64,000 nt of DNA from the NCBI GenBank assembly GCA_965659475.1, contig CBFHWI010000005.1:801-64800 (forward strand). The letters are read 5' to 3'. The DNA comes from Methylophaga sp. (GTDB lineage Bacteria > Pseudomonadota > Gammaproteobacteria > Nitrosococcales > Methylophagaceae). A model generated the notes under the pieces. It was not told the DNA's origin. It ran no database searches and was given only the letters and a program-made list of their open reading frames with translations. Positions 26,365-40,900 of the stretch are shown here, in pieces. Both the position numbers and the translations under genes were made by a program. How positions within the stretch are numbered: position 1 is the first letter of the stretch; each line of letters starts with the position of its first letter.

Positions 26365-27002
26365 ACGCTGAAAACCACTAACCTGCAGTCCTGGCGACAT
26401 TTGCTAAAACCAAAACGTTGGGCCATCTGCGGCAAATAATCGACATGATAGAAAAACACATGCGTTGGATCGTTTTTGTAATACCAGTTAGCAAAATCTA
26501 CTGTTTGTGAGAACAGATCGGTCATGCAATACAGGCTGCCACCCGGCTTTAATAAAGTACGTAAGCGTGCAAACTCAAGTGCAGGTTGATGAAAATGCTC
26601 GATAACTTCACAGCTGATAATAAAATCATATTTACCGTTTAATGCATTGATATTATTATGAAAAAATGGGTCATAAAGTGTGATTTTATAACCATTCTGA
26701 GTCAACTGATGGCTGATGACCGGCCCCGGACCAGCACCAAAATCAAGACCGGTTTTATCTGGGGTTTGCTCAGCTAAAATCGCTTGCGTCACCGTCGACA
26801 CAAATGCCTGATAGCGCATGTCATCGACATCGTTGTTATGGGTTAAATACAGTGCTTTTTCACGTTCGGCATCGGGCAATTGTTGTGCGGCAACTTGTAT
26901 TGATTGACAGCCACTACATTGTAAAAACGTCCGGCTGCGGCTCTCGATATAAAAATTTGCCGGTGCCTGACACAGCCGGCAAAGTTCTGTACTTGTTGTC
27001 AA
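26361..27002 (-). CDS. Class I SAM-dependent methyltransferase with N-terminal CxxC...CxxC zinc site
   Basis: CRLC/CSGC, LDFGAGPG, EVIEHF, YYKNDPTH; TTG start overlaps the upstream stop codon. Confidence 0.85.
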   Translation of the reverse strand: MTTSTELCRLCQAPANFYIESRSRTFLQCSGCQSIQVAAQQLPDAEREKALYLTHNNDVDDMRYQAFVSTVTQAILAEQTPDKTGLDFGAGPGPVISHQLTQNGYKITLYDPFFHNNINALNGKYDFIISCEVIEHFHQPALEFARLRTLLKPGGSLYCMTDLFSQTVDFANWYYKNDPTHVFFYHVDYLPQMAQRFGFSKCRQDCRLVVFSV

Positions 27003-27718
27003 AATGGGATAAAGCTGGCAACCAGACCCAGTAAACCACCAAACACCCCACCCCAAATCACCAGCCAGCCTAAATGCTGACGGATCATTTGCTGGATGAT
27101 GTCTTTCACCATTTCCGGTGTCAGTTCATCAAGGCGTTGATGGACAATCTGTGATATCTGCTGATGCAGGCTGTCGGCACTGCTGCCCTGCCCCAGTTGC
27201 ACTTTCAGGCGCTGCTGAAAATCGTCGCTATGGGCAATATCATTTAAGGCCTGCTGGATCTTACTGATGAATGGTGTTTTTAACGGTTCCAGCGCTTTAT
27301 CACCACCGAACATCGACAACATACTGCCAAATGATGATGCTTTAATCGTATCAATCAACGACTGCCAGGCCGGTGTTAAATCAGCAGATTCAATAATCGC
27401 TTCGAGGTTGAGGTGCTGCGATTCGCGGCCATGTAAATCGTCGATAAAGCGACTGATCTGCGCCGGATGAAAAAATTCCTGCATCACCAGATCTTCAATC
27501 GCTTGGCGAAACGCCGTAAATTTAGCGGCGATGACCCCCGATCCATAAAGGCCGGGGATCTTCTCAAACAGCATATGAATCGCTAACCAGTTGGTCAAAC
27601 CGCCGGCCAAAGCAAATAAGCCGGTCGTTAATACCGGTTCCCGCCACGGCGCCGGTAACCATAACCCCACACCAACCACTGCTGCTGCAATCAGATTGGT
27701 TAACAGACTTTTGTTCAT
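26999..27718 (-). CDS. DUF445 family membrane protein
   Basis: GLFALAGGLTNWLAIHMLFEKIP, HLGWLVIWGGVFGG. Confidence 0.85.
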   Translation of the reverse strand: MNKSLLTNLIAAAVVGVGLWLPAPWREPVLTTGLFALAGGLTNWLAIHMLFEKIPGLYGSGVIAAKFTAFRQAIEDLVMQEFFHPAQISRFIDDLHGRESQHLNLEAIIESADLTPAWQSLIDTIKASSFGSMLSMFGGDKALEPLKTPFISKIQQALNDIAHSDDFQQRLKVQLGQGSSADSLHQQISQIVHQRLDELTPEMVKDIIQQMIRQHLGWLVIWGGVFGGLLGLVASFIPF

Positions 27719-27728
27719 AGGCGCGGTA

Positions 27729-28013
27729 TCAGTCTTTAATCCAGCCCGTTAAAGCGGTGACAATTTGCTGCGCCTGATCCTTGCTGGAAATATTAAATTT
27801 CGAGCGCTGGCCGTATTCGCCATTGCGTTTTTGATAACGGCGAATCGTGTATTTATCAGGGCCAAATTCACCGGTTTTGCGATCCAGATCCTGATAGCGA
27901 AACATGACTGTCGCCCAGGCGCCTTTGGATAAAACGACCTTATCCAGCTCCTTAACGGTCATTAATTCGCCTTCTTGATAGGTCACGGTTAAGTCATCAA
28001 CTGTTTCTGACAT
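27729..28013 (-). CDS. Conserved small hypothetical protein
   Basis: AAGGA RBS, operon spacing, KELDKVVLSKGAWAT...IRRYQKRNG..SKFNISS. Confidence 0.75.
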   Translation of the reverse strand: MSETVDDLTVTYQEGELMTVKELDKVVLSKGAWATVMFRYQDLDRKTGEFGPDKYTIRRYQKRNGEYGQRSKFNISSKDQAQQIVTALTGWIKD

Positions 28014-28035
28014 AGTTTGGGTATTTCCTTAGTTC

Positions 28036-29325
28036 TTAATTGAAAAAATGCTTTAAAGCGCGATATAAATGCCAGCCATCCTGACTGCCGGCCAACTCCC
28101 GAATCGAGTGCATGGCAAAGGTCGGCACGCCGATATCCAATGTTTTGACGCCAATTTGTGCGGCGGTTAACGGGCCAATGGTACTGCCACATGCCATATC
28201 GGTGCGCACCACAAAATCCTGCAACGGCACATCGGCTTGCTGACAAATTTGCCGGAAACGGGCACTGGTTTCGCTATTAGTGGCATAACGCTGATTGGCA
28301 TTGGTTTTAATCACCGGGCCCTGATTCAGCAGCGGTCCATGACTGGCATCATGCCGGTCAGCATAATTGGGATGAATGCCATGAGCGTTGTCCGCTGAAA
28401 TCATCCAGGAATGCTCCACCAGCCGCTGAAAAGCCTCTGGTGCCGGTGCCAGTCGTTGTAATGCCGCTTGTAAAAAATTACCCTGCGCGCCAGCGGTAGA
28501 CATACTGCCAACTTCTTCATGGTCGGTGCAAATTAGCATGGCCGGTTGTTTGCCATCGCTGGCTAATAATGCCTGTAACCCTGTGTAACAGCTTAGTAAA
28601 TTATCGAGCCGCGCCGCACTGATAAAGTCATCATTTAGACCGGTTAACGCTGACGGCTGCGTATCGTACAAACTGATTTCATAATCCAGCACCTGACCGA
28701 TGGTGCGATCCGGGTATTGGCTGCTCAGTTGTTGCTCCAGCAAGGCTCGAAAATCCGGTGTTTCACCCGGTTCGGTTTGCATAATCATGGGCGGTAAATG
28801 TAGCTGTGGATTGATGATGCGGGATTGATTGACCTCACGATCCAAATGAATTGCCAGACTCGGGATCACCGCCATCGGCTTTTTAAAGTCCACCAAAGCA
28901 TGTTGTAACTGTTCTTGTTTATCAAGATAACTGACCCGTCCCGCCAGCGATAAATCACGGTCAAACCACGGGTTTAATAAGGCGCCACCGTAGACTTCAA
29001 CGCCTAACTGCCAAAGGCCGTTGTTTACCTGACCAGGCCGTGGTTTTACTTTTAAACAGGGACTATCGGTATGGGCGCCGACCATAGCAAAACCCGTATC
29101 AGCCAAATGCTTCGCTGTTTTAATAAAAGCAATGATCGATGAGTTGTTGCGGGTGACAAAAAATTTACCGGCTGGCAATTCACCCCATGTGTCAGATTCT
29201 CTGAGTTCAGCAAAGCCGGCCTGCTCAAGCGCCTCAACCATCGATAACACCGCATGAAATGGCGTTGGCGAACTATCAATAAATTGCAGTAAACCCTGAT
29301 TAAATTCTGCTGCGCTGGCATGCAT
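28036..29325 (-). CDS. apeB: M18 family aspartyl aminopeptidase
   Basis: SPTPFH, GAHTDSP, RLDNL, DHEEVGS, SADNAH, CGSTIGP, MHSIRE. Confidence 0.92.
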   Translation of the reverse strand: MHASAAEFNQGLLQFIDSSPTPFHAVLSMVEALEQAGFAELRESDTWGELPAGKFFVTRNNSSIIAFIKTAKHLADTGFAMVGAHTDSPCLKVKPRPGQVNNGLWQLGVEVYGGALLNPWFDRDLSLAGRVSYLDKQEQLQHALVDFKKPMAVIPSLAIHLDREVNQSRIINPQLHLPPMIMQTEPGETPDFRALLEQQLSSQYPDRTIGQVLDYEISLYDTQPSALTGLNDDFISAARLDNLLSCYTGLQALLASDGKQPAMLICTDHEEVGSMSTAGAQGNFLQAALQRLAPAPEAFQRLVEHSWMISADNAHGIHPNYADRHDASHGPLLNQGPVIKTNANQRYATNSETSARFRQICQQADVPLQDFVVRTDMACGSTIGPLTAAQIGVKTLDIGVPTFAMHSIRELAGSQDGWHLYRALKHFFN

Positions 29326-29408
29326 GCTAAGACTCTACTTTTTGGTAACGAAGGCCATACATAGTAACGATTTTTACGCTAAACCACAGCTCAAGGTCTG
29401 TTTATATT

Positions 29409-29771
29409 TCACACAATCCAGCCGGGCGAAAAAAGTCCCTGCCCTAATCTTCGATACACTTGGCCGCGATAAATGTGTTTGGCTTTGTCTGCTTTAGATT
29501 CACTATTATCGGCCGTTACTTGCGCTTGAGAAGTCACCGATACTGGATGACTGCGATACATACATTGGTCACTGGGAGGTGCAACTGGCTGCATCGCGCC
29601 GCCGTGCACACCTGATTTATCAAACACCTTGCTGGCATTATCCAGCATTTTCGTGCTGCTTAGGGGCATCCAGCAACGCACTTTAAATTGACTGGCCAAC
29701 ACCGGTAAGCGGGGCAAAATATCTTTTACAGCGACACCGTGAATTGCATCATAAGCATAAGCCCTGGGCAT
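29409..29771 (-). CDS. Hypothetical protein
   Basis: ATG directly abuts the upstream stop codon (29772); no recognised domain apart from a C-terminal IYRGQVY. Confidence 0.5.
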   Translation of the reverse strand: MPRAYAYDAIHGVAVKDILPRLPVLASQFKVRCWMPLSSTKMLDNASKVFDKSGVHGGAMQPVAPPSDQCMYRSHPVSVTSQAQVTADNSESKADKAKHIYRGQVYRRLGQGLFSPGWIV

Positions 29772-30203
29772 TTAATCTTCAGAGTCGGCGTCGTTACTGA
29801 CTATCTTACGGTTACGTTTGGCGAGACCGCCATGTAAGCGGCAACGATTGGCTAAAGCGCCAAACGCCCAACCTTCCGGTGCCCGAATAGCGACACTGCG
29901 TTTACAGAGTTTGCCACTGTCCATACGGGCCCCGCAAGGCGGCCGGTAGCGTTTAATTTTTTCCCAGCCTTCCAGCGTTTGGCTGGCTTTGCGAATCACT
30001 TTAACATCGCGCGGTGACAAAGCACTTTGATCGACCGGATGGGTTTTTTGATCGGTATTACGCCACCAATAACGCACCACCGGCACCGGTAAGCCAAAAC
30101 GGCGCGCCAGGTCATCGGGTTTGCGATAAATTTCTAATGCCAACAAGGTGATGGCCGCCTGCTCCATGCGGGCGGTAAATTCCCGGCTTTCTTCAGGTGT
30201 CAT
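29772..30203 (-). CDS. HTH-like plus HGGxSTG-like zinc-finger protein
   Basis: DDLARRFGLPVPVVRYWW; CGAR-x6-C...RCRLHGG. Confidence 0.65.
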   Translation of the reverse strand: MTPEESREFTARMEQAAITLLALEIYRKPDDLARRFGLPVPVVRYWWRNTDQKTHPVDQSALSPRDVKVIRKASQTLEGWEKIKRYRPPCGARMDSGKLCKRSVAIRAPEGWAFGALANRCRLHGGLAKRNRKIVSNDADSED

Positions 30204-30666
30204 GTGGATAATGGGGTTTGTTTAAGGCGATAACTTCATCGGTAATATCACTGACCTTATCGCCGGTAATGGCAATATCGCGTACCGAAACACCGGCCGT
30301 GATAACGGATTGTGGATCGCCGGTAATTAAAGGATGCCAGTTGGGCAATTTTTCACCTTCAGCTAATAAACGATAAGCACAGGTATCAGGCAACCAGTCG
30401 AATAAATGCGCTTGCTCGACACTGAGCTGAATACAATCCGGCATTCGGGTTTGCCGGTTGGGATAATCGCTGCAGCGGCAGTTGCCAATATCTAATAAAT
30501 CACAGGCGACTCGCGTGTAATACATACGGTCATCCTGCTCATCTTCGAGTTTATGCAGACAGCAGCGGCCACAGCCATCACAAAGCGATTCCCACTCATC
30601 ATGGCTCATTTCGCTAAGTCGCTTGAGTTCCCAGAAGGCGGCAGATGTTTTATGCTGCTCAGTCAT
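30193..30666 (-). CDS. ycgN: YcgN (UPF0260) cysteine-cluster protein
   Basis: FWELK, EWESLCDGCGRCCLHKL, CSDYPNR, WLPDTCAYR, WHPL. Confidence 0.88.
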   Translation of the reverse strand: MTEQHKTSAAFWELKRLSEMSHDEWESLCDGCGRCCLHKLEDEQDDRMYYTRVACDLLDIGNCRCSDYPNRQTRMPDCIQLSVEQAHLFDWLPDTCAYRLLAEGEKLPNWHPLITGDPQSVITAGVSVRDIAITGDKVSDITDEVIALNKPHYPHDT

Positions 30667-31144
30667 GGATAATATTAATGCTCTTGGTGAATTATTAGAT
30701 CCGCTATTAGCGGAATTCTCGCCACAAAGTTTATTGTTGGCCGGCGAACTGGTCATTGCCAGTGTGCATCCGGCTCAAGATACCAGATCCAAGCAACTGA
30801 CAACACCATTCCGGCAACAACAGCTCAGCGATTTGGACCGAGTGGACGTCGCCATTATCAGTGATCTCACCGAAACCCTGTCAGTTAGCGACGGACAGCA
30901 ATGGTTGGGTTCGTTACGCAATGTATTTGCGCCTCATGTCATTTTAATCAGCGATCCTGATAAAGCGCAGCAACAAGGGTGGCAATTTGCTGACTTTCTG
31001 GCGTTGGGTCTGCATCAAGTCGCAGTCAGCAAAAATGGTCTGCACATTTACAGTTACGCTATCGAAAATTACCAGCCCAAGCGTGACTGGCTGAACAGCC
31101 GTTTTTGGGCGAATCCTGAAAACTTCGGTAAATTTTGGTGGTAG
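30665..31144 (+). CDS. DUF6231-like protein
   Basis: C-terminal DWLNSRFWANPENFGKFWW. Confidence 0.75.
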   Translation: MDNINALGELLDPLLAEFSPQSLLLAGELVIASVHPAQDTRSKQLTTPFRQQQLSDLDRVDVAIISDLTETLSVSDGQQWLGSLRNVFAPHVILISDPDKAQQQGWQFADFLALGLHQVAVSKNGLHIYSYAIENYQPKRDWLNSRFWANPENFGKFWW

Positions 31145-31206
31145 GCTAATTACTATAAATTCATTACCTGCAACGTTGGATTCAAAAATCAAACAAGCCA
31201 ACATCC

Positions 31207-31224
31207 CTGTCACAAAACTGTCAT
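31207..31224 (+). promoter_or_regulatory. Pho box (PhoB site) upstream of ppk1
   Basis: CTGTCAC-AAAA-CTGTCAT, then 10 bp, then TAGACT (-10-like, 31235-31240). Confidence 0.85.
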
Positions 31225-31247
31225 TAAATGGACCTAGACTCGCCCAC

Positions 31248-33329
31248 ATGCATACACCTATAGATTTAAACAGTCCTGATCTCTTTTTAAACCGTGAGCT
31301 TAGCTTGCTGGAATTCAACTGGCGGGTATTACAACAAGCACTCGATACTGATGTGCCACTGCTGGAACGCTTGAATTACCTGTGTATTTCCAGCACCAAT
31401 CTTGATGAGTTTTTTGAAGTCCGGGTTGCCGGCCTTATCCAGCAAATTGAAATCGGCGATCCTTACTTAGAAGCTGATCAAATCAGCGCGCAGGAAGCGT
31501 TGCGGTTGATCAGTCACCGTGCTCATGAACTGGTTGAAGAACAATACAGTGTGCTTAATGAGGTATTGCTGCCCGAGCTGGAGCAAAATGGTATCCGCGT
31601 TATGCCGCGCGCCATGTGGACCGATGTCCACACCAATTGGCTGAAACAATATTTTCAGGAAGAAATCCTGCCAATCCTGAGTCCGATCGGGCTGGATTCG
31701 GCGCATCCATTTCCACGTTTGCTCAATAAAAGTTTAAATTTTATCGTCTCATTAGTCGGTAAAGATGCGTTTGGCCGGAATCGCGGTTATGCGATTTTAC
31801 AGGCGCCACGCGCGCTGCCTCGGGTTATTCAGTTACCGGCAGAGATGTCTGAGTCTGGCGAATATCACTTTGTGTTTTTGTCATCGATAATTCACGCCTT
31901 TGCTGAAGATTTGTTTTTTGGCATGAAAGTCAAAGGCTGCTACCAGTTCCGGGTGACCCGTAACAGTGATTTGGCGATTGATACCGAAGAAACCAGCGAT
32001 CTGCTGGCAACCATTGCAGACGAATTAACACATCGTAACTATGGCGATGAAGTACGGCTGGAAATTGCCCATAACTGTCCTGAAGACATGGTCAACTTCC
32101 TGCGCGAACAATGTGGCATGCATCAGGATAATGTTTACCTGGTCAATGGGCCGGTCAACCTTAGTCGCTTGCAGGCCCTGCATTCATTGGTTGAACGCTC
32201 AGATCTTAAATTCAAACCATTTACTCAGGGTCGCCCTACAGGTATGACTGGTGATGTTGATTTATTTGCCAGCATTAAAAAGGATGATTTTTTATTGCAT
32301 CATCCCTATGAATCATTCGGGCCGATTATTGATTTAATTAAACAAGCGGCAGCCGATAATAGTGTGCTGGCCATTAAACAAACTTTGTATCGCACTGGCG
32401 CCAGTTCACCGATTGTTGATGCCTTGGTTGCTGCAGCCCATGCCGGTAAAGAAGTAACCGTGGTCGTTGAGTTGCGCGCCCGTTTTGATGAAGAAGCGAA
32501 CGTGGCACTGGCTGCTAAATTACAGGAAGCCGGAGCCCACGTGGTCTATGGCATTGTCGGTTATAAAACGCATGCCAAAATGTTACTGATCCTGCGTCGT
32601 GAAAACCATAAGCTGCGCCGTTATGTCCATCTGGGGACCGGTAATTATCACCGCAGTACCTCTCGGGTTTACACCGACTATGGTTTACTGACCTCGGATA
32701 AACAACTGGGCGAAGACGTTAATAACCTGTTTATTCAACTGACCAGCCTCGGTAAAGTACCGCAAATGCACAAATTGCTGCATGCGCCATTCACGCTACA
32801 TACCGGTCTTTTGGATAAAATCGAACGTGAAATAGAACATGCCAAAAACGGCAATACGGCACGTATCATTATTAAAGCCAATGCCGTGGTGGAACCAGAA
32901 ATGGTGCAAGCGTTTTATCGGGCCTCAATGGCCGGCGTTAAGATTGATTTGATTGTTCGAGGTATTTGTACACTGAAACCGGGCGTTGAGGGCTTTTCTG
33001 ACAACATTCAGGTGCGCAGTATTATCGGCCGCTTTTTAGAACACACTCGGGTGTTTTATTTTGAGAATAACGGCAATCCGGAAGTCTGGTGTGCCAGTGC
33101 CGATTTGATGAAACGCAATTTGCTGCGTCGCGTAGAGACCGCTTTTCCAATTGAATCGAAAAAATTGCGACAGCGTATCCTCGACGATTTAAAGCTTTAT
33201 CTAGATGATAATTCGCAGGCTTGGATTTTGTCTGCCGATGGACGATACAAACGCGTCGAAAGTTCAGAGTCGGATAGTAAAATGGCTGCACAAACACACT
33301 TAATGGAAAAAATGGCCGCTACGTTCTGA
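31248..33329 (+). CDS. ppk1: Polyphosphate kinase 1
   Basis: NRELSLLEFN, NLDEFFEVRVAGL, LLHHPYESF, KTHAK, IGRFLEH, SADLMKRNL. Confidence 0.96.
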   Translation: MHTPIDLNSPDLFLNRELSLLEFNWRVLQQALDTDVPLLERLNYLCISSTNLDEFFEVRVAGLIQQIEIGDPYLEADQISAQEALRLISHRAHELVEEQYSVLNEVLLPELEQNGIRVMPRAMWTDVHTNWLKQYFQEEILPILSPIGLDSAHPFPRLLNKSLNFIVSLVGKDAFGRNRGYAILQAPRALPRVIQLPAEMSESGEYHFVFLSSIIHAFAEDLFFGMKVKGCYQFRVTRNSDLAIDTEETSDLLATIADELTHRNYGDEVRLEIAHNCPEDMVNFLREQCGMHQDNVYLVNGPVNLSRLQALHSLVERSDLKFKPFTQGRPTGMTGDVDLFASIKKDDFLLHHPYESFGPIIDLIKQAAADNSVLAIKQTLYRTGASSPIVDALVAAAHAGKEVTVVVELRARFDEEANVALAAKLQEAGAHVVYGIVGYKTHAKMLLILRRENHKLRRYVHLGTGNYHRSTSRVYTDYGLLTSDKQLGEDVNNLFIQLTSLGKVPQMHKLLHAPFTLHTGLLDKIEREIEHAKNGNTARIIIKANAVVEPEMVQAFYRASMAGVKIDLIVRGICTLKPGVEGFSDNIQVRSIIGRFLEHTRVFYFENNGNPEVWCASADLMKRNLLRRVETAFPIESKKLRQRILDDLKLYLDDNSQAWILSADGRYKRVESSESDSKMAAQTHLMEKMAATF

Positions 33330-34081
33330 TGGAAAAAATCGCTTTTTTTAACCTTAAAGGCGGTGTTGGCAAAACTACCTCGGCCGTTAATATTGCCTGG
33401 CATGCTGCCAATGAAGGTATTCCTACACTGCTTTGGGATTTAGATCCGCAAGGTGCGGCCAGTTGGTTATTGCAGCGTAAAGCCAAAGCCAAAAGCGAAA
33501 CCAAAAAAGTGCTGAGTGGTAAAACGGCTATCGGTGAACTGGTGAAAAGTACCGATTACCCGAATCTGGATATTATTCCGGCTGATTTTTCATTCAGGCA
33601 GCTGGATGTGATGCTGGCTGACATGGATAACAAAAGTAACCCAGTCGAAAAACTGCTGGCGCCGTTCAGCGAGCAATATGCTTTGGTTATTCTGGACTGC
33701 CCACCCAGTTTTTCGACCTTGAGCGAACAAATTTTTGCTACGGCCGATGCACTGTATTTGCCACTGATCCCAACACATTTGTCGCTGCGTACTTTTGAAC
33801 AAACGCGCGACTTTTTTAGAGAACATGATTTAAAACCAAAACGTCTGCATGCATTTTTTAATATGGTGGATCGCCGCCGATCCATGCACCGCATAATGCT
33901 CGCGCATCCACCTAAGATGCTAAAACATGGTTTGCAAACGGCCATTCCCTATGCAGCTGTGGTCGAACGCATGGGTGATTTTCGCGCACCACTGTCAGCA
34001 TTTGCCGCTAATACGCCAGTGGCCAAGGCCTATCAGCAGCTTTGGCAGGACATTAAAGCGACACTGAGCAACATCAATTAA
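33329..34081 (+). CDS. Orphan ParA/Soj-family ATPase
   Basis: Deviant Walker A KGGVGKTT, DLDPQG, ILDCPP; TGATG coupling to ppk1. Confidence 0.9.
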   Translation: MEKIAFFNLKGGVGKTTSAVNIAWHAANEGIPTLLWDLDPQGAASWLLQRKAKAKSETKKVLSGKTAIGELVKSTDYPNLDIIPADFSFRQLDVMLADMDNKSNPVEKLLAPFSEQYALVILDCPPSFSTLSEQIFATADALYLPLIPTHLSLRTFEQTRDFFREHDLKPKRLHAFFNMVDRRRSMHRIMLAHPPKMLKHGLQTAIPYAAVVERMGDFRAPLSAFAANTPVAKAYQQLWQDIKATLSNIN

Positions 34082-36324
34082 TCGTTAATTTTTTCCAGCG
34101 TCCAGCAATAGTGGATTTTTGGGTTGCGGGCAAAATCAGCCGGTAAAGTCGCTTTGCTGATATCGCTAATTGCAAACTGGCTGAGCGCTGCGGTATCCCA
34201 TTTAAAATCTCGCCGATTGGTGGAAAATACGATTTGGCCACCTTCGCTCAATAATTGGCCGACTTTGCTCAGCATGGCGACATGATCCCGCTGTACATCA
34301 AATACCTCAGCCATTTTGCTGGAGTTGGAAAAAGTCGGTGGATCAACAAAAATCAAATCAAATTGCAGCTGCTGTTCTACAGCCTCATCTAACCATACCA
34401 ACACATCAGCACGCTGGAATTGATGCGGGGCACCATCTAACCGATTCAGCTGCAAATTATCCTGCGCCCATTGCAGGTAAGTATTGGACATATCCACGGT
34501 TAAGCTTGATGCTGCGCCACCTGCCGCCGCATAAACGGTGGCGCTGCCGGTATAGGCAAACAAATTCAAAAAGCGTTTGCCGCGGGCATTTTCCAGCAAA
34601 TATTGCCGGGTCAGACGATGATCCAGGAATAATCCGGTATCTAAATAATCGGTCAGATTTACCCAAAATTGCAGCCCATTTTCATTAACGGAAAAACGTT
34701 GTTTCAACGCCGCCTGCGCTTCATACTGATTACTGCCCCGCTGCCGCTGGCGTAATTTAAGCGCCACATGCTGCGGTTTAATGGCCAGGATTTCCGGGAC
34801 AATTTGCATGACATCATCCAGCCGCTGGCTGGCTTTGAGTGGATCAATTTGTGACGGCGGTGCGTATTCCTGCACATGTACTTTGTCACCGTAAATGTCG
34901 ATAGCCACGGCATAATCCGGCAAATCGGCGTCATAAACCCGGTAGCAGTCCAGATCCTGTTTGCGTGCCCATTTGGCTAAATGTTTAAAGTTTTTTTGCA
35001 GCCGATTGGCAAACATCTGCGCATTTTCAGAAAGCGCCACTGCTGGCGCTGCTACTGACGTTTGCTCGTCTTCAGATACATTTTTACCCGCTTGTGGCCA
35101 CGCAGAAGCAGGTCGTTTTTGAACTGTTTGTGGTTTGGCTTTGATGGCACGGTAGTACAACACTTCACATTCAATCGGTCCGTTATCAAATGGCACCTGA
35201 TCAAACAACGTCAGACCGGTAAATTTGCCCAGACTGGCGTTATCGGTAATCACAGCACAGCGCCAGGCTGGCAAGTTTTCCTGCAAAATATTGCCGATGC
35301 TTTCATAAAGGAAATGCAGATCCCGGACATTACCCATCCGCGAACCATAAGGCGGATTACAAACCAGTAAGCCCTGCCCCGGTAATTGCCGGCTGACAGC
35401 GGTCCAGTCCAGTAAACGCCGCTCGCTGACGTCAATCCGATCGGCTAATCCTGCTGCCGCAATGTTGGCCTGAGCCGCGACAACCGCTTTGGGATCTTCA
35501 TCGCCACCAGAAATCACCGGTAAACGCCCCAAACCACTTAACCGCCGGCGTTCGGCATCGGCTTTTAACTGCTGCCAAACCGCCTTATCATGTTGTGGCC
35601 AATACAAAAAGCCGAAATAGCTGCGATTTAAACCCGGGGCAATATCGGCCGCCATCATCGCCGCTTCAATCAAAAATGTACCGCTACCGCACATCGGGTC
35701 CAGTAACCCCCAACCCTGGCGCGCCAGATTAGGCCATTCCGCTGTTAATAATATCGCTGCTGCCAGGTTTTCTTTCAGTGGTGCCTCGGTTTGTTGCACT
35801 CGATAACCACGTTTATGCAGGCTGTCACCGGATAAATCGATGCTGACAATGGCCTGATTATGTTTCAGATAAACATTGACCCGCAGATCCGGTTGAAATA
35901 AATCCACCGATGGCCGTTGACCAAATTTATCGCGCAGTTGATCAACAATGGCGTCTTTAACTTTCTGCGCGCCATACTGAGTATGATGAATTTTCGAACG
36001 GAAACTGTTGAAGTCGATTGCCAACGTGGCGTTTTCAGTAGCGATATGCTGCGACCAATCAATTGTTTGAATACCGGTATAAAGCTGCTCTGGCGTTTCT
36101 GCGCCAAAATGAGCAATCGGCATTAATACCCGCACCGCGACACGCGACCATAAACAGACTTCATAAGCTTGTTTTAATGTGCCGGTAAAACGTACGCTGC
36201 CCGCCTCTGGTTTGATTTGCTGGATGCCCAGCTGTTCCAGTTCAGTGGTCAGCAAAGGCAACATACCTCGTGCAGTGGTGACGGTGAACTTGTGAAGTGC
36301 TTGTTTATCTTTCGTTAAAGCCAT
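34078..36324 (-). CDS. rlmKL: 23S rRNA m2G2445/m7G2069 methyltransferase
   Basis: THUMP domain, APLKENLAAA, DPMCGSGT, NPPYG, YLDTGLFLDHR, DPPTFSNS. Confidence 0.95.
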   Translation of the reverse strand: MALTKDKQALHKFTVTTARGMLPLLTTELEQLGIQQIKPEAGSVRFTGTLKQAYEVCLWSRVAVRVLMPIAHFGAETPEQLYTGIQTIDWSQHIATENATLAIDFNSFRSKIHHTQYGAQKVKDAIVDQLRDKFGQRPSVDLFQPDLRVNVYLKHNQAIVSIDLSGDSLHKRGYRVQQTEAPLKENLAAAILLTAEWPNLARQGWGLLDPMCGSGTFLIEAAMMAADIAPGLNRSYFGFLYWPQHDKAVWQQLKADAERRRLSGLGRLPVISGGDEDPKAVVAAQANIAAAGLADRIDVSERRLLDWTAVSRQLPGQGLLVCNPPYGSRMGNVRDLHFLYESIGNILQENLPAWRCAVITDNASLGKFTGLTLFDQVPFDNGPIECEVLYYRAIKAKPQTVQKRPASAWPQAGKNVSEDEQTSVAAPAVALSENAQMFANRLQKNFKHLAKWARKQDLDCYRVYDADLPDYAVAIDIYGDKVHVQEYAPPSQIDPLKASQRLDDVMQIVPEILAIKPQHVALKLRQRQRGSNQYEAQAALKQRFSVNENGLQFWVNLTDYLDTGLFLDHRLTRQYLLENARGKRFLNLFAYTGSATVYAAAGGAASSLTVDMSNTYLQWAQDNLQLNRLDGAPHQFQRADVLVWLDEAVEQQLQFDLIFVDPPTFSNSSKMAEVFDVQRDHVAMLSKVGQLLSEGGQIVFSTNRRDFKWDTAALSQFAISDISKATLPADFARNPKIHYCWTLEKIND

Positions 36325-36372
36325 ACCGCTATCCTGATATAATCGGCGCATTTTAATACAGGTGACACTTCC

Positions 36373-36663
36373 ATGGCAGTGAATGACAAACAACGACGCT
36401 ATTTAAAAGGTCTCGCCCATCCGTTAAAACCAGTGGTAATGATTGGCAACAGCGGTTTGACGCCTAACGTACTCAATGAAATCGAGCAGGCACTCAGTCA
36501 TCACGAATTGATTAAAGTACGTGTCAGCGGTCAGGAACGCGCAGATCGGAAACAAATGCTCGAGCAGATTGCCGAACAAACAGGCGCTGATTTAGTGATG
36601 GTCATTGGCCATATTGGCGGCTTTTACCGGCCAGCTGAAATACCGAAAATCAGCTTACCGTAA
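36373..36663 (+). CDS. yhbY: CRM-domain ribosome assembly RNA-binding protein
   Basis: LKGLAHPLKPVVMIG, HELIKV, IGH. Confidence 0.93.
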   Translation: MAVNDKQRRYLKGLAHPLKPVVMIGNSGLTPNVLNEIEQALSHHELIKVRVSGQERADRKQMLEQIAEQTGADLVMVIGHIGGFYRPAEIPKISLP

Positions 36664-36685
36664 CCAAGCAAACGAGAGCCCCCCC

Positions 36686-37285
36686 ATGATTCAGAAACCT
36701 GCCGATACTGAAGTACCCATTGAAAACGTAATTGCCGAACGCTGGAGTGGTCGGGTTTACGATGCCAATACCCCGGTCACAGAAGCTGAAATTACTGCGC
36801 TGACCGAAGCCGCGCGCTGGGCGCCCAGTTGTTTTGGTGATGAGCCGTGGCGCTACATTATCTGGGATCGGAATCATGACGCCGATAGCTGGCAACAAGC
36901 TTTTGATTGTTTAGCTGAAGGCAATCAACAATGGGCTAAAAATGCACCTGTGTTGATTTTAGCTGCATCGGTAGACGCGTTCCGCCAAAAGGACGAGCCC
37001 AATCGCTGGACCGGCTATGATACCGGCGCTGCCAGTCTCAGTTTATGTTTGCAAGCCACAGCCATGGGACTGATGTCGCATCAAATGGGTGGTTTTGATG
37101 GTGAAAAAGTACGTAAAACGTTTGGCCTGCCCGACGATTTGCACTTATGGTCAATGATGGCAATTGGCCATGCGGCGCCACTTGATGATTTAACCCCCGA
37201 ACAAATGGAACGGGAACTAAAACCGCGACAGCGTCGTCCTTTGGCAGAACATTTTTTTCATGGCGGCTGGCAAAAAAGTCGTTAA
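36686..37285 (+). CDS. Nitroreductase family protein
   Basis: RWSGR, EAARWAPSC..EPWR, YDTGAA, HQMGGFD. Confidence 0.9.
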   Translation: MIQKPADTEVPIENVIAERWSGRVYDANTPVTEAEITALTEAARWAPSCFGDEPWRYIIWDRNHDADSWQQAFDCLAEGNQQWAKNAPVLILAASVDAFRQKDEPNRWTGYDTGAASLSLCLQATAMGLMSHQMGGFDGEKVRKTFGLPDDLHLWSMMAIGHAAPLDDLTPEQMERELKPRQRRPLAEHFFHGGWQKSR

Positions 37286-37304
37286 ATTTAGTCGGAGAAT
37301 CAGC

Positions 37305-37766
37305 ATGAAATCAGTATTGTTAATGGTGACATTATTGGTCAGTACCAGTGCAATGGCCTATGACGAAATTTATCTGAAGAGATTACTGAAAGAAAACCAG
37401 TGTCATCATTGCACACTCAACGATGCGCCCCTTGCAGATCATGATTTGCAGGGTGCTGATATGAGTGAATCCAACCTGAAAGGCATCAACCTTCAAAACA
37501 GTAAACTCAATGGTGCTTGGTTTACCCATTCCAAAATGCATGGCGCAAATCTTGAAGGTGCACAATTGCAAGGTGCTTTGATGGATTACACGCATTTAGT
37601 TGATGTTAATCTGAAAAATGCCAATTTAGATGGCGCGCAGATGATTTTCAGTGATCTCAGCGGTGCTGATTTGACCGGTGCATCAATGGAAGGCACCAGT
37701 GTTCGCGGTATTGTGCTTTGTAATACCACAATGCCCGATGGCAAAATTGATAATAGCGGCTGTTAA
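37305..37766 (+). CDS. Exported pentapeptide-repeat protein
   Basis: Signal peptide ending AMA, A(D/N)Lxx repeats, CHHC and C-terminal CNTTMPDG..NSGC. Confidence 0.88.
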   Translation: MKSVLLMVTLLVSTSAMAYDEIYLKRLLKENQCHHCTLNDAPLADHDLQGADMSESNLKGINLQNSKLNGAWFTHSKMHGANLEGAQLQGALMDYTHLVDVNLKNANLDGAQMIFSDLSGADLTGASMEGTSVRGIVLCNTTMPDGKIDNSGC

Positions 37767-37783
37767 TGACTGATTAAACAGAC

Positions 37784-37819
37784 AACCCGCCGTGGTTTTT
37801 ACCCGGCGGGTTTTATTTT
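37784..37819 (+). terminator. Rho-independent terminator
   Basis: AACCCGCCG...CGGCGGGTT stem followed by TTATTTT. Confidence 0.75.
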
Positions 37820-37903
37820 GTCTGGCTTATGGCAACGGACACTGCAAATTTCTTTATACTATGGTGGCTAAATCGACCGATTTTTTAGCTGACAGGCCTT
37901 CTT

Positions 37904-40900
37904 TTGACCGCACCCACGCTACAACAACTTGAACAAATGCTGTCTGGCACCATGCTCACGGATCGGCATCGGCTGCGGCGAAATGTACAGGCTTTAAAGC
38001 AACAAACCTCACCGGATACCAAAAGATTAGCGCAACTGGCCCAGCAAATTGCCACTTCTGCAGAGCGCTACCACACCCGGCTGAGCAATATACCCAAACC
38101 GAAACTGGATGCTAATTTACCAGTTATCGCCCGCCGCGCAGAAATTGCCAAAGCGATTACTGATAATCAGGTCATTATTCTCTGCGGTGAAACTGGCTCA
38201 GGTAAAACCACCCAATTACCACAGATTTGTCTGGAGTTGGGCCGTGGTGTCAGCGGTCTGATTGGTCACACCCAACCAAGGCGGATTGCCGCCCGAACTG
38301 TTGCCACTCGTATCGCTGAAGAACTGGATTCCAGTATCGGCGAAACGGTCGGCTACAAAGTACGTTTTCATGACCAGGTTCGTGCTGATCGCAGTTATAT
38401 CAAGCTGATGACGGATGGGATTTTGCTGGCTGAAACCCAGAACGATAAATTTCTCAATCAATACGACACCATCATTATCGATGAGGCCCATGAGCGCAGT
38501 CTGAATATTGATTTTCTGCTCGGCTACTTAAAACAACTGCTGCCGAAACGGCCCGATTTAAAACTGATCATCACCTCGGCAACCATTGATACGGCAAGAT
38601 TCTCTGAGCATTTTGAAGATGCGCCGATAATTGAAGTCAGTGGCCGTACCTATCCGGTAGATGTTCGTTATCGTCCCCTTCTGAGCCAGGATGAAGATAG
38701 CGAAGATTATGATTTTATCGAAGGCATCGTCGTTGCCGTTGATGAACTGTGCAAGGAAGGTCCCGGCGATGTGCTGGTGTTTTTATCAGGCGAGCGTGAT
38801 ATCCGTGATGTCTCCGAAGCATTGCGTAAACATCATCCGCCGAATACCGAAATTTTGCCGTTATTTGCCCGGCAATCCGCTTCTGAACAAAACCGCGTCT
38901 TTAAAACCGGTGGCCCAAGGCGCATCGTGCTGGCCACCAATGTTGCCGAAACATCATTGACGGTGCCTGGTATTCGTTATGTGGTGGATCCAGGACTGGC
39001 GCGGATCAGTCGCTATAGCGTTCGGAATAAAGTTCAACGCTTGCCGATTGAAAAAATATCCCAGTCCAGTGCCAATCAACGTTCTGGTCGTTGTGGCCGG
39101 GTTGCCGCTGGTGTTTGTATCCGGCTTTACGATGAAGATGATTTTAAAGCGCGGTCAGAATTTACTGATCCGGAAATTTTGCGGACCAACCTCGCTTCGG
39201 TAATTTTACAAATGACCGCATTAAAGCTTGGCGATCCCGCTAAGTTTCCGTTTATTAATCCGCCGCCGCCGAAAATGATTAACGACGGTTACCGGCTGTT
39301 AGAAGAACTGGGCGCCGTTAACCGGCAACGGCAAATCACCGAGATTGGCCAGCAACTGGCCAAACTGCCGATTGATCCCCGGATTGCCCGGATGGTGTTG
39401 GCGGCCAATACCCAGAACAGCCTGCATGAAGTGCTGATTATTGCCAGCGCCCTGAGTATTCAGGATCCGCGTGAACGGCCGATGGATAAACAGCAGGCTG
39501 CTGATGAAGCCCATAAAAAATACCAGGACGAACGCAGTGATTTTCTGGCATTTTTAAAGCTGTGGGATCTGTATCACGATAAGAAAAAACATTTATCACA
39601 GAATAAGTTACGCCGGTTTTGTAAAGAAAACTTCCTGTCATTTTTACGGCTACGCGAATGGCTGGATATTTATCAGCAACTGCATGTGCAAGTTACCCAA
39701 ATGGGCTTTAAGCCCAACCAGCAGCCCGCCGATTATATGGGCATTCATCTGGCGCTGCTCAGTGGTTTATTAAGCAATATCGCCGCGAAAACGGAACAGC
39801 ATGTTTATACCGGTGCCCGGAACCTGAAGCTGAGAATATTTCCGGGATCAGCACTGCATAAAAAAGGGCCGAAATGGATCATGGCCGCTGAACTGGTCGA
39901 AACCGGTCAGTTGTATGCGCGCATTGTTGCCAAAATTGAACCGGAATGGATTGAGCCAGTCGCCGGTGATTTGGTTAACCGTCAATACAGCGATCCGCAT
40001 TGGGAGAAAAAACCGGCACAAGTTGCTGCTTTTGAAAGCGTCACTTTGTATGGTCTGCCGATTGTCAGCCGCCGCCGTGTGCATTACGGGCCGATAGATC
40101 GTGCCTTATCCAATGAAATATTTATTCGCCAGGCATTGGTTGCCGGTGACTTTAACTGTAGTGCGCCGTTTTTTAAGCATAATCAGCAGTTGGTTGAAGA
40201 TATTGCCATCCTCGAAAACAAATCCCGGCGCCGGGATGTGCTGGTTGACGATGATGCCTTGTTTGAGTTTTACCGGCAGCAAGTCCCCTCAGATATCGTC
40301 AATGGCGCTGGCTTTGAGCGCTGGCGTAAAAAAGCCCAGCAAAAAGATCCCAATCTGCTGTTTTTGACCCGTGAGGCATTGATGCAGCATGAGGCCGACC
40401 AGGTCACGGTCGATGCCTACCCCGATCAAATGCTGGTCAATCGTGTTGCCCTGCCGCTGGAATATCATTTTGAGCCGGGTAAACAACAAGATGGCATCAC
40501 CCAGACCATTCCCTTGTCATTGTTGAACCAGACGCAGCCTGAGCGTTATGAATGGCTGGTGCCGGGCTTGCTGCGCGATAAAGTTATCTTCCTGCTTAAA
40601 TCTTTGCCAAAATCATTGCGCCGGCATGTGATTCCGGTGCCGCAATATGCCGATCGGGCTTTGGATTTGATGTCACCGGAACAGGGCGCTTTATTGCCAG
40701 CCCTTAGCGAGGTACTGCGTAAATTGACCGGCGTAGATATCAAACCAGATGACTGGCGGATGGCAGAATTACCGCTGTATTTACAGATGAATTTTCGTTT
40801 GGTTGATGAAAACGGCAAATTGCTTGATGAAAGCCGTGATTTAGCCCGGCTTAAAAATGACTGGGCCAAACAAGCCGCAGACAGTTTCAGGCAAATGCCG

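Follow-up and report, generated by a model that had tools for sequence, protein, structure and literature searches.

A ParA-like ATPase encoded with polyphosphate kinase in Methylophaga and its provisional subfamily linked to polyphosphate genes

We analysed a 64,000-nucleotide stretch of a Methylophaga genome (contig CBFHWI010000005.1 of assembly GCA_965659475.1, positions 801 to 64,800; hereafter the window), in which the gene for polyphosphate kinase 1 (ppk1) is followed directly by a gene for a ParA-like ATPase (parA). Sequence comparison and structure prediction place this ATPase in a polyphosphate (polyP)-linked ParA subfamily, a provisional grouping that we define here. Many independent gene orders and fusions make a strong case for a link between this subfamily and polyP. 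The window contains a kinase-coupled variant from a subclade in which the polyP linkage is looser but recurrent. Most likely, the protein would use ATP to organise polyP granules or Ppk1 while bound to the nucleoid.

PolyP genes beside and within ParA relatives

We searched 401 Gammaproteobacteria genomes drawn evenly from the class. Matches to the ParA-like protein formed two groups: full-length orthologues, 38-51% identical with E values of 1e-46 to 1e-83, and paralogues with E values of about 1e-21. Phylogenetic analysis recovered the family as monophyletic against the Soj-like paralogues, with a support of 99. Among 1.84 billion representative sequences, the family comprises 335 clusters at 50% identity with E values up to 1e-30.

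None of the first 27 orthologues from outside Methylophaga had ppk1 within 1.5 kb. In 21 of the 27, a large open reading frame (ORF) ended exactly at the parA start, and Pfam identified its product as a CHAD-domain protein. CHAD domains bind polyP and localise to polyP granules (PMC6537752). CHAD genes were called by a Pfam search over the 401 genomes and crossed with the places of the ParA genes; an iterated CHAD profile was also used. A CHAD gene adjoins ParA in 44 of the 66 orthologous places, in every case upstream and on the ParA strand. Of 64 genomes with the ParA, 57 contain a CHAD gene, versus 76 of the 336 genomes without it (Fisher p 3e-24, a value that overstates the association given the relatedness of the genomes). 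Four genomes flagged as unpublished are counted here, two with a ParA that is not CHAD-adjacent (G141, G308) and two with CHAD only (G039, G296); without them adjacency is 44 of 64 places, and no conclusion depends on these four by themselves.

Kinase and phosphatase genes were also found nearby, with ppk1, ppk2 or ppx within 8 kb of parA in 12 loci of the class-wide set. The gene orders include CHAD>parA>ppk1 (L092), ppk2>ppk1>CHAD>parA (L105), CHAD>parA>ppk2 (L073, L078, L087) and parA>ppk1 (L093). A gene for a two-domain PPK2 of about 490 amino acids (aa) abuts parA at six further loci (L141, L142, L145, L147, L180, L182), upstream on the same strand with a gap of 8-12 nt. The PPK2>ParA operon of one family in a phylum-wide sample parallels the Ppk1>ParA arrangement of Methylophaga.

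ParA and polyP-related domains are also joined in single proteins. By precomputed Pfam annotation, the best 120 longer relatives (39-48% identity) include 15 CHAD-ParA and 27 ParA-CYTH fusions, and the domain order was confirmed in eight fusion proteins. In the ParA-CYTH layout (P0012, P0013, P0024 and 24 further clusters), an N-terminal ParA is followed by a linker of about 70 aa and a C-terminal CYTH domain. These forms come from several sources, one of them on a 5.3-Mb contig. Some of the CHAD-ParA calls could be frame errors of assembly. In many of the other longer relatives, the C-terminus is extended by 200-270 residues with no Pfam match. The first-pass annotation had named neighbourhood enrichment with polyP genes as a check on its reading, and the CHAD adjacency, the abutting ppk1 and PPK2 genes and the fusions all supply it.

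Most CHAD-linked ParA sequences form one large clade, and the Methylophaga protein falls in a smaller, separate subclade (support 95 with a quick IQ-TREE run or 89 with FastTree). This subclade includes three loci in which a short stand-alone CHAD gene precedes parA (L063, L077, L090), the parA>ppk1 locus L093, and about eight loci without a polyP neighbour. One genome carries a copy in each clade, one as CHAD>parA and the other as parA>ppk1. At L093:468-3460, on a short contig, the order is a dynamin-family GTPase gene (485 aa), parA and, 72 nt later, ppk1; the L093 genome has its second parA in a CHAD>parA pair on another contig.

The ppk1-parA unit in Methylophaga

The window belongs to a 2-Mb assembly in 98 contigs that is 89.7% complete. 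The features of the locus are given in Table 1.

Table 1. Features of the ppk1-parA locus, in window coordinates
Feature	Position	Strand	Basis or remark
DUF6231 gene	30623..31144	+	Pfam PF19742; 5' boundary of the ppk1-parA unit
Pho box, two CTGTCAY half-sites 11 bp apart, at the -35 position	31207..31224	+	Exact consensus match
-10-like hexamer TAGACT	31235..31240	+	Read from the sequence
ppk1, polyphosphate kinase 1, 693 aa	31248..33329	+	Pfam, TIGR03705
TGATG, ppk1 stop and parA start, 1-base overlap (translational coupling)	33327..33331	+	Sequence
ParA-like ATPase, 250 aa	33329..34081	+	Pfam AAA_31, CbiA, MipZ
Deviant Walker A KGGVGKTT, residues 10-17	33356..33379	+	Signature lysine K10, catalytic K15
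Walker A'/switch I DLDPQG, residues 37-42	33437..33454	+	D37, D39
Lys/Arg-rich loop RKAKAKSETKK, R50-K60	33476..33508	+	Family-specific
Walker B DCPP, residues 123-126	33695..33706	+	D123
NMVDRRRSMHR, residues 178-188	33860..33892	+	R183 aligns with the Arg of the Soj 'D-x-R'
rlmKL	34078..36393	-	NF008748, 941 bits; convergent 3' boundary

All four Ppk1 Pfam domains (PP_kinase_N, PP_kinase, PP_kinase_C_1 and PP_kinase_C) are present in the kinase, which scores 937 bits against TIGR03705 (equivalog level, cut-off 466). The domains and the one-base overlap agree with the first reading of the locus as ppk1 followed by a ParA ATPase coupled through TGATG. On the 3' side, the convergent rlmKL shares 4 nt with parA at the stop codons, which leaves no room for a downstream partner gene. 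On the 5' side, a 103-nt spacer separates the DUF6231 gene from ppk1 and contains the Pho box.

The Pho box (CTGTCACAAAACTGTCAT at 31207-31224) had been described as near-consensus and in fact fits CTGTCAYN4CTGTCAY without a mismatch. No other site in the window comes within one mismatch (0.07 expected), and in the genome it is one of four such matches to 2xCTGTCAT. The hexamer TAGACT lies 10 nt after it and 7 nt before the ppk1 ATG. It is identical to TATAAT at four of six positions, so the same label, "near-consensus", was generous for the -10 element. A promoter scan found no sigma-70 -35/-10 pair at the ppk1 promoter, as expected if the promoter depends on PhoB. The layout of Pho box and -10 hexamer is repeated in Methylophaga loci L003, L005 and L007. 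Pho sites with up to two mismatches, together with a -10-like hexamer, precede ppk1 in 10 of the 26 Methylophaga loci, and degenerate Pho sites were found upstream of ppk1 in two close relatives. The Pho box of other Methylophaga species lies about 50-80 nt further upstream.

From these Pho-box matches we reasonably infer PhoB control of ppk1-parA, and the two genes probably form one PhoB-switched operon. Regulation of ppk by Pho is itself already known. No Shine-Dalgarno sequence precedes the ppk1 ATG; together with the position of the -10 hexamer, this implies a leaderless or near-leaderless ppk1-parA mRNA in the window's species group, starting at the predicted transcription start. Pho-box-like sites at G000:C57:4191-7951 and G000:C18:21323-23111 sketch the Pho regulon of the organism. 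Sites with two mismatches precede phoB, a PiT-type phosphate transporter gene and a major facilitator superfamily gene on the ppx-bearing contig, and a site with one mismatch precedes an OlsF-like acyltransferase gene for phosphorus-free lipid synthesis (gene names read from translations).

Predicted internal promoters and terminators around parA were at chance level. Contigs from the single RNA run identified, a marine metatranscriptome, included four short, low-depth ppk1 fragments and an rlmKL edge, and none covered parA or the junction.

The ppk1-parA order is kept in every Methylophaga locus, within a block that is syntenic in all of them from an M18 peptidase gene to a pentapeptide-repeat gene. 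At the junction, the two genes of 15 other Methylophaga loci read in register overlap by 1 nt or stand at most about 10 nt apart. The DUF6231 gene is syntenic in nearly all Methylophaga loci. It was rejected as a ParA partner because it was not found beside the ParA orthologues in 27 genomes from outside the genus. As listed, the DUF6231 ORF (plus strand, TTG start at 30623) shares 134 nt with the ycgN ORF on the minus strand (30193-30756). The DUF6231 Pfam match begins at residue 23, so one of the two starts was probably called too early.

The sole CHAD gene of the window genome encodes a stand-alone protein of 302 aa on contig C13 (G000:C13:33996-34658), between rnr and an ABC-F gene. The closest complete relative (G226; ParA 98% identical, assembly 100% complete) carries ppk1-parA and gave no CHAD match, either by Pfam or with the Methylophaga CHAD query. 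A BLAST search with the Methylophaga CHAD protein recovered CYTH-CHAD partners at 25-33% identity and did not recover the stand-alone CHADs beside the nearest ParA orthologues. On this result orthology cannot be claimed, and the protein was set aside as a split-off ParA partner.

We also compared the termini of Ppk1. In CHAD-ParA clusters (L074, L092, L105, L106), Ppk1 carries Lys/Arg-rich C-terminal tails of about 20-40 residues, and such tails are absent from Methylophaga, L066 and L184. A C-terminal sequence directs Caulobacter Ppk1 to the sites of granule production (PMC3806658).

The ParA-like ATPase

By sequence and fold, the protein is a member of the ParA/MinD deviant Walker A superfamily. 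No NCBIfam model reaches its cut-off, and the MinD model TIGR01968 scores 24 bits against a cut-off of 213. The four motifs read by the first-pass annotation (KGGVGKTT, DLDPQG, DCPP and NMVDRRRSMHR) were all found in place, the full deviant Walker A motif being NLKGGVGKTT at residues 8-17. K10 to T16, D37, L38, D39, Q41 and D123 are invariant across 45 family members. H187 is invariant as well, and at least 90% of the family members keep D181 and R183. The D.R pair is retained at the equivalent columns of the Soj-like paralogues, and the Arg equivalent to R183 (R189 in Bacillus subtilis Soj) is presumably a DNA-binding residue in Soj. Judged by its motifs, the ATPase appears to be catalytically intact and single-domain.

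An AlphaFold2 model (predicted local distance difference test 93, predicted template modelling score 0.92) shows a plain single-domain Soj-like fold that ends with the last core helix (H230-245) and five more residues. No N-terminal helix-turn-helix, C-terminal extension or MinD-type amphipathic membrane helix is present in the model, as had been proposed earlier for the helix-turn-helix and the membrane tail. Foldseek gave template modelling (TM) scores of 0.82-0.88 to Soj/ParA proteins (E 1e-17 to 3e-20), which were the closest, followed by McdA (0.84), plasmid ParAs and MinD. The best solved relatives by sequence are also ParA and Soj (E 2e-20 to 1e-14).

Four family motifs are present in the window protein: the Lys/Arg-rich loop after DLDPQG, FFxMVDRRxxxHR, PYAxxVExMG and a C-terminal AYxxLW. 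They are conserved in the family and not in the paralogues. Across aligned residues 44-66, the family has a mean of 5.9 Lys/Arg residues versus 1.7 in the Soj-like paralogues. The loop is the lowest-confidence part of the model (about 77). We speculate that it could bind polyP or DNA.

The fold and motifs, nearest to those of chromosomal Soj/ParA, raise the question of a DNA-partition ATPase acting on the chromosome, a plasmid or an integrated element. The closest solved structures by both sequence and fold (8RAY, 1WCV, 6IUB) are of this type, and the signature lysine of the deviant Walker A motif and the 'D-x-R' Arg are shared with it. However, identity is only 24-30%, the family forms a clade apart from the Soj-like paralogues, and the paralogues lack the lysine-rich loop. 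The ORF list, Pfam and NCBIfam revealed no parB, min or mobile-element gene beside the ParA-like gene. Its neighbours are ppk1 and the convergent rlmKL, in line with the earlier observation that no parB or minCE gene is nearby, and there is no space for a partner gene beside it. The canonical parA-parB pair of the genome is on contig C11, where the only ParB_N match in the genome lies beside a Soj-like paralogue. A partition role is therefore very improbable. The first-pass annotation also placed the locus near the terminus, a position that stays conjectural: GC skew showed no sign switch across the window, which comes from an assembly in 98 contigs.

The McdA/McdB system, which positions carboxysomes, offers another comparison. 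Both ATPases are small, single-domain ParA-type proteins encoded with genes of the body they position (or, for Methylophaga, would position). The predicted fold has a TM score of 0.84 to Cyanothece McdA, the nucleoid is the presumed matrix, and a cargo-bound partner is encoded beside the ATPase in most relatives. They differ in that the sequence relation is at superfamily level only (E 6e-07) and the cargo in Methylophaga would be an inorganic polymer granule instead of a protein shell. The usual partner in the subfamily is a CHAD protein and not McdB, and in the window the neighbour is the polymerase, with no partner gene. The ORF list, Pfam and NCBIfam gave no mcdB or carboxysome genes at 27000-39000.

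A possible role in polyP granule placement

PolyP granules are regularly placed in Caulobacter (PMC3806658) and in Pseudomonas aeruginosa, where the H1-like protein AlgP matters (PMC9239181). AlgP is the only described factor for their even spacing (PMC9239181, PMC13052382). AlgP acts on the nucleoid, as the ATPase would; it is basic and binds DNA, as do granule-nucleoid tethers of the PhaM/PhaF type (PMC9239181, PMC13052382). Unlike the Methylophaga protein, it is histone H1-like and has no ATPase activity. A 2025 review lists the spacing factor and its energy need as unknown (PMC13052382), and a 2026 mBio paper states that a distinct granule-spacing mechanism is still to be found (PMC13556221).

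Our literature search for a ParA tied to polyP granules returned nothing beyond two drawings of an Acidithiobacillus gene cluster, which agrees with the first-pass annotation that no such system has been characterised. The drawings show a folD-ppk-parA-CHAD cluster, with ppk beside parA as in Methylophaga (PMC6416229, PMC10892726). The papers, from 2019 and 2024, label parA as a chromosome or plasmid partition gene and propose no polyP role. In Methylophaga, by contrast, the CHAD gene is outside the cluster. The Acidithiobacillus parA is a candidate member of the subfamily.

We propose nucleoid-based positioning of polyP granules by the ParA-like ATPase, a reading to which we assign a probability of roughly 0.45. 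In this model, the Pho box would take the place of a -35 element, and parA would be translated by coupling to ppk1. The ATP-bound ParA dimer would bind the nucleoid non-specifically and contact polyP granules through a granule-bound partner, which would then trigger ATP hydrolysis by ParA. The obvious adaptor in most lineages is the CHAD protein. In Methylophaga this partner might be Ppk1 or the unlinked CHAD protein, or the lysine-rich loop might contact polyP directly. Zones of ParA depletion would separate the granules, space them along the nucleoid and distribute them to the daughter cells, much as McdA acts on carboxysomes. The first-pass annotation had made the same proposal with Ppk1 or polyP as the adaptor; the expected enrichment with polyP genes is strong, and both the positioning role and that choice of adaptor stay conjectural.

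A more specific version is that Methylophaga has a two-gene system. ParA would recognise Ppk1 or polyP directly through the lysine-rich loop with no CHAD adaptor, a single mRNA under Pho control would encode the polymerase as well as the ATPase that positions the resulting polyP, and the subfamily would be the missing energy-driven machinery for granule positioning. We regard this version as unlikely.

Several observations weigh against granule positioning. Synechococcus spaces its granules without using its only ParA, McdA (PMC13556221), so ParA-free spacing exists. The window operon contains no partner gene. Ppk1 was rejected as a marked ParA partner, since the Methylophaga enzyme has neither a basic C-terminal tail nor a special N-terminus. 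In a sister genus, ppk1 is present and neither a ParA subfamily member nor CHAD was found, which indicates that Ppk1 can be independent of ParA. Most of the non-Methylophaga loci in the Methylophaga subclade have no polyP neighbour, and only 8 of 40 loci in a one-per-genus set from outside the class have one. A well-supported subclade of about 20 genomes (L169-L175, L189-L203) adjoins truA/rnfH/uppP, again with no polyP neighbour, and the ParA family may have a second, polyP-unlinked way of life there. Most of these loci have a divergent uppP-truA-rnfH block upstream, and several have a gene for a pyridoxal phosphate-dependent enzyme downstream. Conserved same-strand upstream ORFs with no Pfam match (cluster c5) may be spurious ORFs in GC-rich DNA.

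The position beside ppk1 could also be a chance gene order that became fixed in a single genus, with the ParA serving a role unrelated to polyP. The Methylophaga loci share their entire neighbourhood and so represent a single event, and polyP neighbours are lacking in about half of the subclade lineages and at most loci outside the class. However, in independent lineages a subfamily member adjoins CHAD, ppk1 or ppk2, or is fused to a CHAD or CYTH domain. Four of about ten subclade lineages abut a polyP gene, against a rough estimate of well under 1% for a random gene, and across the genus parA either overlaps ppk1 by one base or follows it within a few bases. We give an accident little credence.

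The ATPase could instead localise or regulate polyP enzymes (Ppk1, PPK2 or a CYTH domain) and not act on finished granules. BcsQ provides a precedent for this alternative, as a ParA/MinD-type ATPase that is encoded in a polymer synthase operon and places cellulose synthase at the pole. The family-level similarity to BcsQ is weak (TIGR03371 E 2e-11, below cut-off; Foldseek TM about 0.8), and BcsQ belongs to a different subfamily and serves a membrane-bound machine and a different polymer. A kinase (Ppk1 or two-domain PPK2), not a granule-coating protein, abuts ParA here and in several lineages, and the ParA-CYTH fusions tie the ATPase to an enzyme-type domain. No CHAD gene was detectable in the closest complete relative, which does have ppk1-parA, and the genome with two copies, one behind CHAD and one before ppk1, fits divided roles. 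Nevertheless, the commonest partner by far is CHAD, which binds polyP and has no known catalytic role (PMC6537752), and no special N- or C-terminal peptide marks the Methylophaga Ppk1 for partnership with ParA. Enzyme localisation or regulation is the likeliest of the alternatives, although still unlikely.

With polyP as a signal and not a cargo, the ATPase could also be a regulator of the nucleoid or of division that responds to polyP, in the manner of MipZ or PomZ, and links the cell cycle to phosphate. The lysine-rich loop of the family could bind polyP or DNA competitively, expression is probably Pho-controlled, and many family members are orphan genes beside housekeeping genes. PolyP has also been linked to cell-cycle exit and nucleoid state (PMC9239181, PMC13556221). 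Yet no division or nucleoid gene is a conserved neighbour, and the proteins to which the family is linked make, bind or cleave polyP. We consider such a regulator improbable.

Granule positioning by the ATPase would address the open question of how polyP granules are placed and inherited, for which the polyP-wired ParA subfamily provides a concrete gene. The Methylophaga form is useful here, as it occurs in several cultured species, among them M. thiooxydans DMS010, M. sulfidovorans DSM 11578 and M. muralis (L025, L017 and L030), and separates the ATPase from the CHAD protein, which allows the adaptor question to be posed cleanly. If the ATPase does act on an inorganic polymer or on its polymerase, the cargo range of ParA-type systems would be wider.

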